In this document: piece by piece, positions 6,217 to 18,896 of the stretch
Layout of the letters: every line of letters starts with the position of its first letter
How positions within the stretch are numbered: the stretch's first letter is position 1
Assembly: GCA_003663045.1 (NCBI GenBank)
Contig: QMZG01000001.1
Coordinates: 1 to 37,598, forward strand
From: Candidatus Altiarchaeales archaeon
Lineage (GTDB): Archaea; Altiarchaeota; Altiarchaeia; IMC4; QMZM01
DNA length: 37,598 nt
Direction of reading: 5' to 3'
Notes under the pieces: model-generated
Seen by the model: only the letters and a program-made list of their open reading frames with translations
The model's database searches: none
Told to the model about the DNA's origin: nothing
Program-made: the position numbers and the translations under genes

Positions 6217-7394
6217 TGTTTATACCTTCTTGTTCCCTCTATCTTCTCCCAGGAGTAGGAGGGTCCTCTAAATATGTATGTGAAAAGCCCTTTCAGGCAG
6301 GAGTATTGTGAATGAAGAAACGTAATGATGATATATCGGCTTTTTGACATTATACTTAGCAATAGGAGAGCGGTCAATAATATAAGTGCTACATGAATAT
6401 GTAATGAAAAAAATGTTAAAAAGAATAGAAGTATTAAAAAAGGGGATATGACATGCATAAAAAATTCTATTGGGAATATCAACATCCCGAATAGTCCATA
6501 ATTTCTATTGAAGAAAAATACTTTGAAAAATCTGAGGAATAACTGAATTAAACCCTGTGCCCTCCTATACTTCTGTTTTGTTCTTTCTTGCATACTGGAC
6601 GCTGCAAATTCCCAGAAGATTGCATCATCTACATGTATTGTCCTATAACCTTTTTGTCTGATCCTCAATGCAATTTCGGAATCGTCTGCTACAGAATCAT
6701 TATATATCCTGCTTATGAGGGTCTTTCTGAAGGCAGTAAATGGACCATTAAAGATAAATGTTGAATCAAGTATAGACTCAGCATGACGTATCATGTGATA
6801 AAGATTCCTGTATTCAATCTCAATTATGGACATATCACTATCTCTATCACCCAGAACTACGTGCCTACCTGTCAGAGCACCAACTCTCTGATCAGCAAAA
6901 TAGGGAATTGAAACATTCAGGATGTTCTTATTTAGTCTGGAATCAGAGTCTGTTATTACTATAATCTCACCATTGGAGTATCTAAGAGCACGATTTAGTG
7001 CGACGGCTTTGCCCCTTCGTTCCTTTAATTTAAGTAATTTAAAATTACGGTGGTTTTTTATAAATCCTTTAACAATTTCAACCGTTTTGTCATTAGAGCC
7101 GTCATCTATTATAAGGACTTCGAGTTTGTCTTTTGGATATTCCAAATCAAGGGTATTCTCTAATTTTCCTTTAATAGTATTCTCCTCATTCCAGGTGGGG
7201 ATAATAAGGGAGATAGTTGGTTCATAATCTGGATCACTTCTAACATCTAACTTTCTATAGGATACTATGTACTGGCATAATAGAAAGTAACCCCCATATA
7301 CTATACCTATACTCAATATACTGAACCAGAATATTATCTCAGCCAAACTCATTTTTATCTTATTTGAGACAATCAATTCTAAGAAATCAGACAC
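6213..7394 (-). CDS. membrane-integrated processive-type GT2 synthase (PgaC/IcaA/NodC/chitin- or cellulose-synthase-like)
   Basis: Motifs are 'IIPTWNEE', 'LIIDDGSNDKT', 'ITDSDS' (DxD), 'ADDSE', and 'QKYRRAQG' in the position of Q(R/Q)xRW. There is an N-terminal TM helix and C-terminal TM helices. Confidence 0.75.
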   Translation of the reverse strand: MSDFLELIVSNKIKMSLAEIIFWFSILSIGIVYGGYFLLCQYIVSYRKLDVRSDPDYEPTISLIIPTWNEENTIKGKLENTLDLEYPKDKLEVLIIDDGSNDKTVEIVKGFIKNHRNFKLLKLKERRGKAVALNRALRYSNGEIIVITDSDSRLNKNILNVSIPYFADQRVGALTGRHVVLGDRDSDMSIIEIEYRNLYHMIRHAESILDSTFIFNGPFTAFRKTLISRIYNDSVADDSEIALRIRQKGYRTIHVDDAIFWEFAASSMQERTKQKYRRAQGLIQLFLRFFKVFFFNRNYGLFGMLIFPIEFFMHVISPFLILLFFLTFFSLHIHVALILLTALLLLSIMSKSRYIIITFLHSQYSCLKGLFTYIFRGPSYSWEKIEGTRRYKQ

Positions 7395-7397
7395 AAT

Positions 7398-9143
7398 TCA
7401 CAACCTGTCATATACCTTAATATTGGCCTCTTCGGCGATCCTCTTAGCCTCTGGGTTCTTTATAAAAAGTCTGGCTTTTAATTGCTTCGCCAAGGCAATG
7501 GACTCAGCACTATTGTCATCTAAGCCCTTTGAGATCAGTTCATTGACAAAGTTCCAGTCTTTAATCCAGACGATCTCCACCTTTCCCTGATCTATAAATT
7601 TCTTAAGCCTTCTCAATTTTCTGCTGGTACCGGCTACAATATATGGGTTCCTTTTATTTATAAAATCCTCTAATTCATCACCTTTAATATCCTTTAGGAA
7701 ATCCATTGCTGCTACATATCTCCTCTTTTTGTGCATATAGAAGAATAACAAAGCTAATAAGAAGAGTATTATGAACAGCATTACTATCCCTCCCGGGCTT
7801 CTGGAAAATGCAACTATGTAACCAATTACCCCCACTGGAGTACAGGGCTTACATGGACCACCACAGTCAATACCTCCCTCACCCTGATTCTGAATCCCAT
7901 CAGAGCATGTTGGTATCCTGCAGGTATTATTGTAACAATAATTACTTAAGCAGTCTGAATTCACCAAGCACCTTTTACCTTCACCACAGGGTTTACAAGG
8001 ACCTCCACAGTCTATGTCTGTTTCATCCTGATTTAGTATTTCATCATAGCATGTTGGTATCCTGCAGATATTTTCATAGCAATAATTACTTAAGCAGTCT
8101 GAATTCACCAAGCACCTTTTACCTTCACCACAGGGTTTACAAGGACCTCCACAGTCTACATCACTTTCATTCTGATTCTTTACTCCATCAGAACAGGTTG
8201 GTGTTCTGCATACATTATCATAACAAACACCACTTAAACAATCTGAATCTACCATGCATTTTTTACCATCGCTACAAGGATCACAAGGACCTCCACAGTC
8301 TACATCACTTTCATTCTGATTCTTTACTCCATCAGAACAGGTTGGTGTTCTGCATACATTATCATAACAGTATCCGCTTTTACAATCTGAATCCGTAAGA
8401 CAGGATTTACCATCTTCGCAGGGTTTACAGGGGCCTCCACAATCTACATCTGTTTCACCATAGTTCTTTATACCATCATAACATGCAGATATTACCCTGC
8501 CTTTTCTGGGAGGATAAGTTCCACGGCCCCTACGATGTTTCTTCACCGTGGTAGTTGTGGTACTAGTTGTGGTAGTTGTAGTCGTTGGCACAGTTGTTGT
8601 TGTGGCAGTTGATATAGTGGTTGTTGTAGTACTTGTGGTAGTTGTAGTAGTGACGCATACCACCTCAAATTCTGTGTCTGCGGTAAAGGTTTTACATCCA
8701 GAGGAAACTATAATCCTTGCTGTATATTCTTCTTTTTCATTAATGCAATCCTCTGGCAAATTCCATAGAATTTCATAGTCGATAGTGTTACCACCACCAT
8801 AGGCATAGCAATTTTCGGGATTGGACTCGGTTACAGTTACATCCAGATCACAATTCCCATATTCTGGATAGTATCCATAATGTTTGGGCAGGGAACAACT
8901 TAAATGAACCCGATTATCTATATCTAAGTTTACATCGTCTACCTGCTCGCATTCTGTAAGCTCTACGGTAGCGTCAAAGGTCACTATTTCTCCTGGAGAA
9001 TAGGTTTTCTTGTCACTGTCTATAGAAACCGATATGTCTGCAGAGGATAACGAAGTCAGAAAGATCAAGATGATGGTTACTATAAATACAGATCTCAAAA
9101 TCCCACCAAAAATGTTCACACCACCCATTTTTATTACCCTCAA
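7398..9143 (-). CDS. type I membrane surface protein: signal peptide, beta-rich N-domain, poly-Thr linker, 4.5 Cys-rich 48-aa repeats, TM helix, ~115-aa cytoplasmic alpha/beta tail
   Basis: Signal-like 'FIVTIILIFLTSLSSADIS'. Thr run 'VTTTTTTSTTTTTISTATTTTVPTTTTTTTSTTTTT'. Repeats follow 'C(S/Y)DGxxNxxExDxDCGGPCxPCxxGKxCxxxSDCxSxxCYxNxCRxPT'. TM 'IVMLFIILFLLALLFFYM' is followed by 'HKKRR'. An alternative start is Met-6 (9128). Confidence 0.8.
   Translation of the reverse strand: MRVIKMGGVNIFGGILRSVFIVTIILIFLTSLSSADISVSIDSDKKTYSPGEIVTFDATVELTECEQVDDVNLDIDNRVHLSCSLPKHYGYYPEYGNCDLDVTVTESNPENCYAYGGGNTIDYEILWNLPEDCINEKEEYTARIIVSSGCKTFTADTEFEVVCVTTTTTTSTTTTTISTATTTTVPTTTTTTTSTTTTTVKKHRRGRGTYPPRKGRVISACYDGIKNYGETDVDCGGPCKPCEDGKSCLTDSDCKSGYCYDNVCRTPTCSDGVKNQNESDVDCGGPCDPCSDGKKCMVDSDCLSGVCYDNVCRTPTCSDGVKNQNESDVDCGGPCKPCGEGKRCLVNSDCLSNYCYENICRIPTCYDEILNQDETDIDCGGPCKPCGEGKRCLVNSDCLSNYCYNNTCRIPTCSDGIQNQGEGGIDCGGPCKPCTPVGVIGYIVAFSRSPGGIVMLFIILFLLALLFFYMHKKRRYVAAMDFLKDIKGDELEDFINKRNPYIVAGTSRKLRRLKKFIDQGKVEIVWIKDWNFVNELISKGLDDNSAESIALAKQLKARLFIKNPEAKRIAEEANIKVYDRL
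7838..8486 (-). repeat. tandem 144-bp (48-codon) coding repeats, 4.5 copies, inside the surface-protein gene
   Basis: Two perfect DNA identities lie at offset 144: 7936-8014 = 8080-8158 (~79 nt) and 8147-8225 = 8291-8369 (~79 nt). The match 7907-7923 = 8051-8067 has the same offset. Confidence 0.9.
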
Positions 9144-16584: not shown

Positions 16585-16794
16585 TCATTGCCCTATTTTA
16601 GATGCCAATTCTACATCCTCTTTTGTTATAGTTTTCCTTCCAGCATGCTTAGAAAGTCTAATGGATTCCACTGTTAATTTTTCTATCAGAATCTCTGCCT
16701 TATCCGCTATTGCTTTTACCGCATCATTAGAAATTCTCTCTGCACCAGCCTTTCTCATAACTCGCTCCACGGGAGCTAATGGTAACCCGGCCAT
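16585..16794 (-). CDS. archaeal histone (HMf/HTk-type histone fold)
   Basis: 69 aa. 'LPLAPVERVMRKAGAERISNDAV', 'KHAGRKTITKEDVELA' and the length match archaeal histones. Confidence 0.9.
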   Translation of the reverse strand: MAGLPLAPVERVMRKAGAERISNDAVKAIADKAEILIEKLTVESIRLSKHAGRKTITKEDVELASKIGQ

Positions 16795-16940
16795 AATCCA
16801 TCACTAAATTCACTGGATTAAATTATTAAGTTTAGAGTATAAAAATATAGAAGAATAGGGAGCAGTGTATTAGTTTTAATTGAAGTTTTAAGAAATTCGG
16901 AGATAAAATATTAACGTATTTATATAAGATTGTGCAATAG

Positions 16941-16950
16941 TTTAAAAAAT
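16941..16950 (+). promoter_or_regulatory. TATA-like box upstream of the 16968 start
   Basis: 'tttaaaaaat' ends about 18 nt before the ATG at 16968, and 'ggtgat' (SD-like) lies 3 nt before that ATG. The spacing suggests a very short leader or a leaderless transcript. Inference only. Confidence 0.3.
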
Positions 16951-16955
16951 ATGGA

Positions 16956-17975
16956 GTGGGTGATAATATGGATAAAAAAATTGCAATAGGTGTGATTATA
17001 GTCTTGATAGTGCTTGGCATAGGCGCCTTCTTGTTTTTAAGCAAAGAAGCAAAACCAGAATGGTCGGACTTAGTTCCCGACTCCAATCTTGTGATGATTT
17101 TTGATATGCAAAAAGCATTGAAGGTGTTAGATGATGAAGATATACGGGAACTCTATAAATCCCTGGGTGGAGAAGAGGTAAATCTGAGGGAAAAGGCTGA
17201 GGAGGAGATCAATAAACAGTTGGGGAAGGTAGGTATAAGAGCGGGAGATATATCCAAGATTGTCGTCTTCGGGGATTTCCCCACCTCTGTTGGTATCACA
17301 TCATCAGAAGTTGGTATGCTCGTTACCGGTAAATTTGATAGGGATAGGATTATTTCTGGAGGCAATCTGGCATCTGAGGAAAGCTATCTGGAGGAGAATA
17401 TCTATAAGTGGGTTGAGGAGAAACCCTATGGGGGACCGAAAGAGGTATTTATCGTCTTTTTGGATGACAAGATAGTTCTTTCTGAGAAAAGGGATATAAT
17501 AAAAAAGGTTATAGATGTGAAAAAAGGTAAAGAGAAACCTCTGAAAAAGGAGAAGCTATCCCTTCTAGAAGAGGTGGGGGGAAATGAAGCCATTTTTGGT
17601 ATAATTCTCACCATATCAGAAGAAATGAAAAGAGAATGGAAGGAGAGTATGGGATCAATACCAATTACTGGAATGTTTAAGACAGAATCTTTTACCAAAT
17701 TAGAGAAGATGGCTTATTCACTGGATAAGAAGGATAGTATTATCTCCCTGAATTCGGTAACCTACTATGAAGATAAAGAAACCGCCGAAAGTGCTGCCAA
17801 AACCACTAGGGGAGCAAGAGATATGTATTCTGGAACCATAAAAGGTTTAGATAAACTGTTCAAGGATATGGAGATAAAGGTGGAGGGCAAGAAGGTTAAA
17901 ATGAAGTGGGAGATTGAAATCCAGGTGATAATGGAATTGATCCAGGAGTATAAGAACATGTATAAAGATGCTTGA
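16956..17975 (+). CDS. membrane-anchored hypothetical protein (single N-terminal TM helix, Lys/Glu-rich ectodomain)
   Basis: The ORF opens on GTG at 16956. The ATG at 16968 (MDKKIAIGVIIVLIVLGIGAFLFLS) is the more likely start. No family recognised. Confidence 0.6.
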   Translation: MGDNMDKKIAIGVIIVLIVLGIGAFLFLSKEAKPEWSDLVPDSNLVMIFDMQKALKVLDDEDIRELYKSLGGEEVNLREKAEEEINKQLGKVGIRAGDISKIVVFGDFPTSVGITSSEVGMLVTGKFDRDRIISGGNLASEESYLEENIYKWVEEKPYGGPKEVFIVFLDDKIVLSEKRDIIKKVIDVKKGKEKPLKKEKLSLLEEVGGNEAIFGIILTISEEMKREWKESMGSIPITGMFKTESFTKLEKMAYSLDKKDSIISLNSVTYYEDKETAESAAKTTRGARDMYSGTIKGLDKLFKDMEIKVEGKKVKMKWEIEIQVIMELIQEYKNMYKDA

Positions 17976-18147
17976 GCCTAGTATTCGGTATACCGGTTCA
18001 TCTCTCGAGTTTGAGGTATTGAATGGTGCGGGGGAACGTGTTGGTAACGTCATTTTGGAACCTTCAGGTGATTGTGCTACCGCTTCACGTGTCAACATCG
18101 ATTCTATCCGCGCTGGTGGTACTGCTCAGAAAGGTACTGCAGAATAG
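17968..18147 (+). CDS. 59-aa ORF with foreign composition (missed by the 60-aa ORF cutoff)
   Basis: My own translation: MLEPSIRYTGSSLEFEVLNGAGERVGNVILEPSGDCATASRVNIDSIRAGGTAQKGTAE. The ATG overlaps the upstream stop (ATGCTTGA). All four Arg codons are CGN and 7 of 8 Gly codons are GGT. My hand count gives 84 G+C in 172 nt (17976-18147), in an otherwise AT-rich window. Confidence 0.4.
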   Translation: MLEPSIRYTGSSLEFEVLNGAGERVGNVILEPSGDCATASRVNIDSIRAGGTAQKGTAE

Positions 18148-18167
18148 TTAAAATTTTGACTTAATAC

Positions 18168-18896
18168 TTACTTAATACTTTCAATTATCTCCTTGATCTT
18201 GCTACAATCCTCCTCGGTTGCCGTACCATTGACTATCACATCCGCTCCCGCTCTTGTTTTTTCCCTTGCGGTTTTCCCATCCCTGATCCCTCCACCAACA
18301 ATGATCGGGATTTCTATTTCGGCTCTAACTGCAGAGATCATCTCATTGGGAACGGGGTTTTCTGCACCCGAGCCCGCTTCAAGATAGATGCACTGCATAT
18401 TGAGATATTGAGCAGTTAATGCATAATTAATAGCCTTCTGAATTTCATTTCCCTCAATTCTATCCAAATTACAGACCCTTTCCACCATAGTGGGTTTCCT
18501 ACTAGTGCTTATTACTATGTACCCCATAGATATTGGCTTTATATTCCACTCGTTTATTAATGAAGCCCCTTTAATCTGTTCTTCTATTAAAAATCTTCTA
18601 TCGATGGAATTCATGAGCATCATAAAGAATATATAATCCGCATTTTCTGATACAGCTCGTGAGGAATTTGGGAATAATATTGTTGGGATATCTACAGATC
18701 TCTTTATTGATTCTACTGTTCTATAAACCAGTTCTCTGTCATCAACAGTAGAACCTCCAATCATAATGGCGTTAGTTCCATATTCATAGCAGATTTTTGC
18801 CCTTTGACCCGCTTCTTTGGGGGATTGATTCTCTGGATCAATTAGGGTAAAATGAAGCTTTTTTTCCTTCTTCAATAATTCTTTTATTAAATCCAT
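18168..18896 (-). CDS. geranylgeranylglyceryl phosphate synthase (PcrB/GGGPS family)
   Basis: 'HFTLIDPE', 'IMIGGS', 'IYLEAGSGA' and 'IIVGGGIR' fit the TIM-barrel GGGPS signature. Confidence 0.85.
   Translation of the reverse strand: MDLIKELLKKEKKLHFTLIDPENQSPKEAGQRAKICYEYGTNAIMIGGSTVDDRELVYRTVESIKRSVDIPTILFPNSSRAVSENADYIFFMMLMNSIDRRFLIEEQIKGASLINEWNIKPISMGYIVISTSRKPTMVERVCNLDRIEGNEIQKAINYALTAQYLNMQCIYLEAGSGAENPVPNEMISAVRAEIEIPIIVGGGIRDGKTAREKTRAGADVIVNGTATEEDCSKIKEIIESIK

Follow-up and report, generated by a model that had tools for sequence, protein, structure and literature searches.

A short open reading frame in an Altiarchaeota genome is probably a decaying remnant of a type IV pilin-like gene

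Here we show that a 59-codon open reading frame (ORF) in a 37,598-nt stretch of Altiarchaeota DNA (the window) is derived from a larger pilin-like gene, and argue that it is very likely an ordinary pseudogene, what is left of an archaeal type IV pilin-like gene of the class III signal peptide type that no longer functions and is decaying. In the ~160-aa class-III-signal (type IV pilin-like) proteins of Altiarchaeota, its counterpart is residues ~57-112 together with the final five, and parts essential to a pilin are gone: the signal peptide, the hydrophobic helix and 40 codons of the globular domain. An initial annotation had singled out the ORF for its foreign-looking composition, and its position, its 59-aa peptide, its overlap with the upstream stop and its G+C count past that stop (84 of 172 nt, 48.8%) were all reproduced exactly. 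Among the explanations offered there, a remnant of a foreign gene came closest: the remnant part holds, as a 5′-truncated and internally deleted pilin-like gene, whereas the foreign part is half-supported, the codons being un-host-like and the family native to the lineage. A recently acquired small gene, also proposed, found no support, since the ORF is a piece of a larger pilin-like gene.

Pilin homology and the missing parts

In a six-frame search of related genomes, the ORF peptide matched the middle of 155-200-aa ORFs from five genomes of the same family (43-48% identity, E down to 1e-9), where these pilin-like ORFs are multi-copy and often arranged in tandem; BLASTP gave E 3e-12. The N-terminal sequence of the matched proteins is KGQGAMEYLMTYGWAILVVMIVGVVLW, which, by the known features of archaeal type IV pilins, is a class III signal peptide with a cleavage site between KG and Q, a Glu at +5 and a hydrophobic N-terminal helix; intact pilin-like relatives open with KGQGAMEYLMTYGWAILVV. 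The alignment with the ORF begins just past this helix ('IKPFEPSIKYTG...'), leaving the ORF with neither signal peptide nor helix. The two N-terminal hallmarks of the family, a class III signal peptide ([KR]G, then Q/A..E at +5) and a hydrophobic alpha-helix, are thus absent from the ORF, which starts at the equivalent of residue ~59. In intact pilins the position of its ATG is occupied by an internal Pro codon, and the DNA upstream codes for the 335-aa gene, not for a signal peptide.

The family is well represented in the lineage. Best named matches were to Candidatus Altiarchaeota MAGs, the nearest intact relatives are Altiarchaeota pilins with 40-42% identity, and the subfamily is widespread in Altiarchaeota and DPANN, with at least 579 loci; no closer intact relative of the remnant was found in a collection of 5.8 billion proteins. 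Class III signal peptide pilins are substrates of PibD/EppA/FlaK-type prepilin peptidases, and the window's genome (1.17 Mb, 81% complete), from an uncultured Altiarchaeota member of hydrothermal or marine sediment, encodes processing and assembly machinery in the form of a Peptidase_A24 prepilin peptidase (50 bits, contig C78) and five T2SSE (PilB-type) ATPases above cut-off. It also carries three intact pilin paralogues, only 21-31% identical to the remnant. In addition, a 415-aa polytopic membrane protein on contig C10 of this genome (G000, ~6690-7932, + strand) contains two tandem C-terminal pilin-like globular domains (weak matches, E 1e-3), indicating that the pilin domain is also used outside classical pilins in the same genome.

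Profile searches were less informative. The ORF peptide matched nothing in Pfam or NCBIfam, a single-protein scan of the genome contigs with it gave no match, and a length-restricted homologue search returned nothing but a near-identical 63-aa form. For the intact relatives, NCBIfam and a PDB profile search yielded no match, and Pfam PF04021 (Class_IIIsignal) reached E 0.18, below cut-off. An AF2 model of an intact homologue (34-sequence alignment, pLDDT 85) comprises a helix at 10-37 and seven strands, of which the ORF covers only those at 57-90 plus a loop. Foldseek searches with this model placed Aap, Haloferax volcanii and Natrinema pilins in the top ten, with weak scores (E 0.007-0.013, TM 0.26-0.31).

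The internal deletion became apparent through an exhaustive HMMER search, which recovered an 82-aa protein (P0004) that is 84% identical to the ORF peptide and sits on a syntenic contig, L024, from a different sample. Gene order on L024 runs 136-aa protein, histone, 340-aa gene, 82-aa ORF, GGGPS and CBS. Between '...GGTAQ' and the terminal 'KGTAE' with its stop, L024 holds 120 nt (40 codons, in frame) that are missing from the window; conversely, a 35-nt stretch of the window, its ATG included, is absent from L024. Encoded in the 120 nt are the C-terminal strands and the second Cys that the family conserves, and when these 40 residues are added to the window ORF, the composite can be aligned along its whole length to residues 57-159 of an intact 161-aa pilin (42% identity, E 1e-26). 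The ORF thus lacks a complete beta-sandwich, the 120-nt deletion having cost it the strands that correspond to 112-157 in the modelled homologue (Table 1).

We propose that a rearrangement brought the interior of a pilin gene, starting near codon 57, to lie immediately after the 335-aa gene, at the cost of the pilin promoter, the signal peptide with its KG/QGAME cleavage motif (slash, cleavage site) and the hydrophobic N-terminal helix. In the window's clade, another deletion, of 120 nt, would then have eliminated the second Cys along with three of seven beta-strands, so that codons ~57-112 run straight into the native final five codons and stop. That the frame is still open would be due only to the youth of the decay, the ATG would be a mutated internal codon whose overlap with the upstream stop is accidental, and any product would presumably be a cytoplasmic half-domain, neither exportable nor assemblable.

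Table 1. Features and structural alleles of the remnant locus (window coordinates)
Feature	Position	Strand	Carrier	Remarks and evidence
59-codon ORF	17968..18147	+	Window	
Pilin remnant, main body	17962..18129	+		Residues ~57-112: strands 2-4 of the beta-sandwich, following loop, conserved 'GDC' Cys; E 1e-9, BLASTP 3e-12, alignment, AF2 homologue model
Native C-terminus: last five codons (KGTAE) and native stop	18130..18147	+		Family C-terminus G[VT]AE plus stop; identical in L024 past the 120-nt segment
Junction of 120-nt deletion	18129..18130	+	Window clade	Lost piece: last three beta-strands and partner Cys, kept in L024; pairwise and population alignments
5′ breakpoint zone, rearrangement hotspot	17955..17961	+		335-aa gene meets pilin remnant; 35-nt deletion, 65-nt insertion, 12-nt duplication
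35-nt deletion, start removed	~17955-17989		L024	
98-nt deletion	17993-18090		X6, X7	In X6 at depth 12.4 of ~31 (~40%)
65-nt insertion	between 17961 and 17962		X2, X5, X7	
1-nt deletion	18144		Most strains	Replaces the stop, giving the commoner 63-aa form
12-nt duplication	5′ breakpoint zone		P0023	Tail of the upstream gene
335-aa membrane-anchored orphan gene	16968..17975	+		dN/dS 0.18 against L024; codon score 0.086
~1.37-kb segment (335-aa gene and remnant) between histone and GGGPS	16795..18167			L017 gene order
Convergent GGGPS (PcrB family)	18168..18896	-		PF01884, E 5e-49; stop 20 nt past the remnant's stop

Source of the unusual composition

The compositional anomaly is real. Over its whole length the ORF has a G+C content of 48.3%, compared with 39.2% in the genome and 37.9% in the window; of all 180-nt windows, only 3.2% genome-wide and 1.3% in the window rank as high. 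The neighbouring GGGPS gene also contains G+C peaks similar to that of the ORF. The excess lies at codon positions 1 and 2 (0.58 and 0.52, versus 0.46 and 0.34 in genes), and GC3 is 0.35, lower than the genome's 0.39. The genome's own pilins have a G+C content of 40-46% and related pilins 46-47%, and across 79 family members the pilin globular domain exceeds its own locus by a mean of 3.6 G+C points. The lost 120 nt are 38% G+C, and the reconstructed 99-codon relic would be at 44%. Because pilin domains are G+C-richer and the lost segment is comparatively AT-rich, the raised G+C mostly reflects the Gly/Ala/Thr-rich amino-acid composition of pilins together with the deletion; a genuine compositional anomaly can therefore stem largely from these two sources.

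Codon usage is a separate matter, and here the claim that it departs from that of the host proved well founded. All four Arg codons are CGN (CGG/CGT/CGT/CGC), whereas long ORFs of the genome use 89% AGR, and Gly is GGT in 7 of 8 cases, against 29% genome-wide. Among 22,893 59-codon windows of long ORFs, only 4 contain at least four CGN codons without AGR (~2e-4) and 35 contain at least seven GGT codons (~1e-3). Third positions are T at a frequency of 0.51 (genome, 0.30), and the mean log-RSCU of -0.10, compared with 0.093 +/- 0.030 for genes, falls in the lowest 0.3% of random 59-codon windows. The reported preference for NNT codons stands for Ala (4/6) and amounts to only half of the codons for Thr (2/4) and Ser (3/6); the LEPS repeat (two copies) and the single Cys are present in the peptide as described.

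Two native sources for this bias were considered and rejected. Host high-expression bias does not account for CGN and GGT, as AGR and a mixture of Gly codons are found in the genes for EF-1alpha, thermosome and histone, and a trait of the pilin family fares no better, as the genome's own and related pilins use AGR. Codon usage is host-like in the genome's own pilins, in the 335-aa gene and in highly expressed genes. No donor with the odd codon usage was found in the genome contigs, the 5.8-billion-protein collection or the nearest named relatives. Since the CGN, GGT and T-ending bias is un-host-like, the simplest reading is a lateral origin of the pilin copy, without amelioration, from another and probably related genome within Altiarchaeota, a proposal for which we consider the chances evenly balanced.

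Strain variation and alternative explanations

The locus, with the same flanks, was present in at least 20 vent or sediment metagenome runs from many studies, which allowed its structural alleles to be compared across natural populations. The remnant ORF is 59, 63 or 82 aa long depending on the strain, and the 98-nt-deletion allele would encode a frameshifted product of ~33 aa. Indels in the remnant measure 35, 98, 65 and 1 nt, versus 3, 21 and 12 nt, all multiples of three, in the adjacent 335-aa gene; frame-disrupting indels, as in a pseudogene, are thus carried by the remnant in natural populations. The in-frame polymorphisms of the 335-aa gene lie near 17301 (3 or 21 nt) and near 17621 (12 nt).

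The junction with the upstream gene is equally variable. In the window, the ATG lies inside ATGCTTGA and overlaps the upstream TGA (17973-17975), an arrangement that had been read as coupling to the preceding gene. Across strains the start is ATG in some and GTG in most, the window's own ATG is deleted in L024, the overlap reads ATGCTTGA, GTGATTGA, GTGCTTGA or TTGA, and the frame relation to the upstream gene shifts from +1 in the window to -1 in L024. Because overlap and frame relation change between strains, the apparent coupling is accidental, and an overlap of start and upstream stop does not count as evidence for translational coupling. The same change of frame relation rules against a programmed frameshift joining the 335-aa protein to the pilin domain.

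In one 86-nt unitig, from a single metagenome, positions 17939-17991 are fused to 33 nt that match the organism's own pyrD exactly; the source of the 33 nt is the dihydroorotate dehydrogenase gene on contig C41 of G000 (= L026 3088-3120). Judged from this one unitig, the 65-nt insertion suggests templated filler DNA plus a 23-nt duplication. An interpretation of the 65-nt allele as an in-frame ancestral fusion was rejected, as the readable part of the insert has a TAA in that frame and copies the organism's own pyrD.

The upstream gene itself shows the features of a maintained gene, namely purifying selection and host-like codon usage. It was initially described as a membrane-anchored protein of 339 aa; the membrane anchor holds and the length does not, as 339 aa is obtained only when counting from GTG 16956, and the most likely start is the ATG at 16968, which gene callers choose and which has a GGTGAT motif in front. 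Domain profiles gave only a weak DUF3352 match. No homologue was found in 25 related genomes, and outside those relatives the homologues are all at least 92% identical and belong to the same species-level clade. The last 4-10 residues of the protein vary between strains (NMYKDA, NMYKGA, NMYKGD, NMYKGMYKGA or IPVHLSSLRY) because the gene reads into the remnant.

Downstream, the convergent GGGPS gene named in the initial annotation was confirmed by its Pfam family (Table 1). On L017, from a genome of the same family (G006), the GGGPS, histone and 128-aa protein genes (the last a homologue of the 136-aa protein) are contiguous, with a GGGPS-histone gap of 157 nt; compared with that arrangement, the 335-aa gene and the relic are therefore inserted. 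The additional segment is bordered by imperfect AT-rich inverted repeats (16820-16842 and 18148-18181), which are probably chance matches, since nine similar pairs occur in 1.6 kb. Positions 18158-18180, in the 20-nt gap between the convergent genes and the first bases past the GGGPS stop, hold two tandem copies of the 11-nt repeat ACTTAATACTT, kept in all strains. The histone gene (16585-16794) has a called length of 57 or 69 aa depending on the strain (comparison with L025, L108 and L117), indicating that its N-terminus or start codon differs between strains.

Substitution patterns give a more nuanced picture. Relative to L024, the remnant has accumulated 0.5 synonymous and 5.5 non-synonymous differences (Sd and Nd), small counts that nonetheless show no synonymous excess, as would befit a pseudogene; the 335-aa, GGGPS, histone, 136-aa and CBS genes have dN/dS values of 0.16-0.22 in the same comparison. 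Within the window's clade, the remnant is equally diverse at third positions (0.0138) and at first and second positions (0.0115), and these values resemble those of flanking fourfold sites (0.010-0.024), in keeping with a neutral rate. Between clades, the remnant core (17990-18129) differs from L024 at 6 of 140 sites (4.3%), compared with 24 of 181 flanking fourfold sites (13.3%; P ~4e-4), and since the clades separated has thus evolved more slowly than the full neutral rate. All six differences fall in 63 nt (18026-18088), two are common to a strain of the other clade, and codon 23 exists as three alleles across strains (GAA, GGA and GCA). This slow divergence could reflect recombination in the recent past, function that was lost only recently after diversifying selection, or some constraint.

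In one rival reading, the ORF encodes a functional micro-protein of pilin ancestry whose translation is coupled to that of the 335-aa gene. The core of the ORF is less diverged between clades than neutral sites, several annotation pipelines and gene callers predict it as a gene, and all 15 assembled haplotypes retain an open frame whose start, a usable ATG, GTG or TTG, adjoins the stop of the upstream gene. Among the RNA-seq runs searched, none contained the locus. We nevertheless consider a working micro-protein unlikely. Such a product would have neither signal peptide nor hydrophobic segment and would keep three of seven strands and a Cys without its partner; length and both termini vary among strains, with the frame-breaking 98-nt deletion at ~40% in one population; the frame relation on which coupling would depend flips; and the changes are almost all non-synonymous. 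Shine-Dalgarno motifs, uninformative in this genome, lend it no help.

Clustered polymorphism of this kind also raises the idea of a silent pilin cassette, a promoterless, 5′-truncated donor for gene conversion into an expressed pilin, as with Neisseria pilS. In the ancestral form, spanning codon ~57 through the native stop, precisely the conserved N-terminal portion is missing and the variable domain is retained, and the substitutions are few, clustered, non-synonymous and partly shared across clades, with the three alleles at codon 23. If the remnant is, or recently was, such a donor, a conjecture to which we give very little credence, the clustered trans-clade polymorphisms and un-host-like codons would be traces of exchange, and Altiarchaeota would have Neisseria-like variation of a surface appendage. 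However, the remnant is single-copy, and the rest of the 81%-complete genome shares only chance 12-14-mers with it (blastn, tblastn). The intact paralogues show only 21-31% identity, no close intact allele exists among the 5.8 billion proteins, and frame-breaking deletions segregate freely, all of which makes a silent cassette highly improbable.

A structured RNA that happens to be open, which nothing beyond the raised G+C would favor, is still more improbable: a tRNA scan found none, Rfam gave no match at the gathering threshold and nothing relevant at E<=10, fold energy on the two strands is no better than shuffled (z -0.37 and +1.09), and protein-level homology fully explains the sequence. 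An assembly chimera or a vector or spike-in contaminant, suggested by compositional oddity only, can be dismissed with near certainty, as both junctions, left and right, recur unchanged in independent Logan, ENA, JGI and NCBI assemblies of many studies and in more than 20 independent metagenomes, contigs of 2.7-9.6 kb span or abut the locus, and blastn against phage and plasmid sequences gave no match, nor was there a vector match.

Comparison with known systems

Collectively, these results favor a decaying pilin pseudogene. The ORF is deposited as a hypothetical protein in NCBI, JGI and ENA, where a pilin-pseudogene label would be right, and the case illustrates how comparison of strains across metagenomes can tell a relic from a gene. 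The piecemeal deletions, together with the apparent pyrD-copy insertion, would represent a small snapshot of relic erasure in a streamlined archaeal genome.

Solved archaeal type IV pili include those of Sulfolobus Aap and of Haloferax and Natrinema PilA. As in archaeal type IV pilins, the remnant is homologous to a globular beta-sandwich domain, intact members of its family start with KG/QGAMEYL followed by a hydrophobic helix, and the window's genome encodes a Peptidase_A24 and PilB-type ATPases; unlike them, the window copy lacks the signal peptide, the helix and 40% of the domain, and even its intact relatives resemble the solved pilins weakly (Foldseek E ~1e-2, TM ~0.3). Neisseria pilS loci are likewise promoterless pilin copies without the conserved 5′ coding part, whereas the remnant is single-copy, has no homologous expressed locus that we could find and is being deleted piecemeal. 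The closest parallel is with pseudogene remnants of prokaryotes, which share the loss of essential parts, the frame-breaking indels, substitutions that do not favor synonymous sites and the annotation as a hypothetical protein; the remnant differs from them in being still open with a start, in a between-clade divergence below that of fourfold sites, and in its non-host codons.
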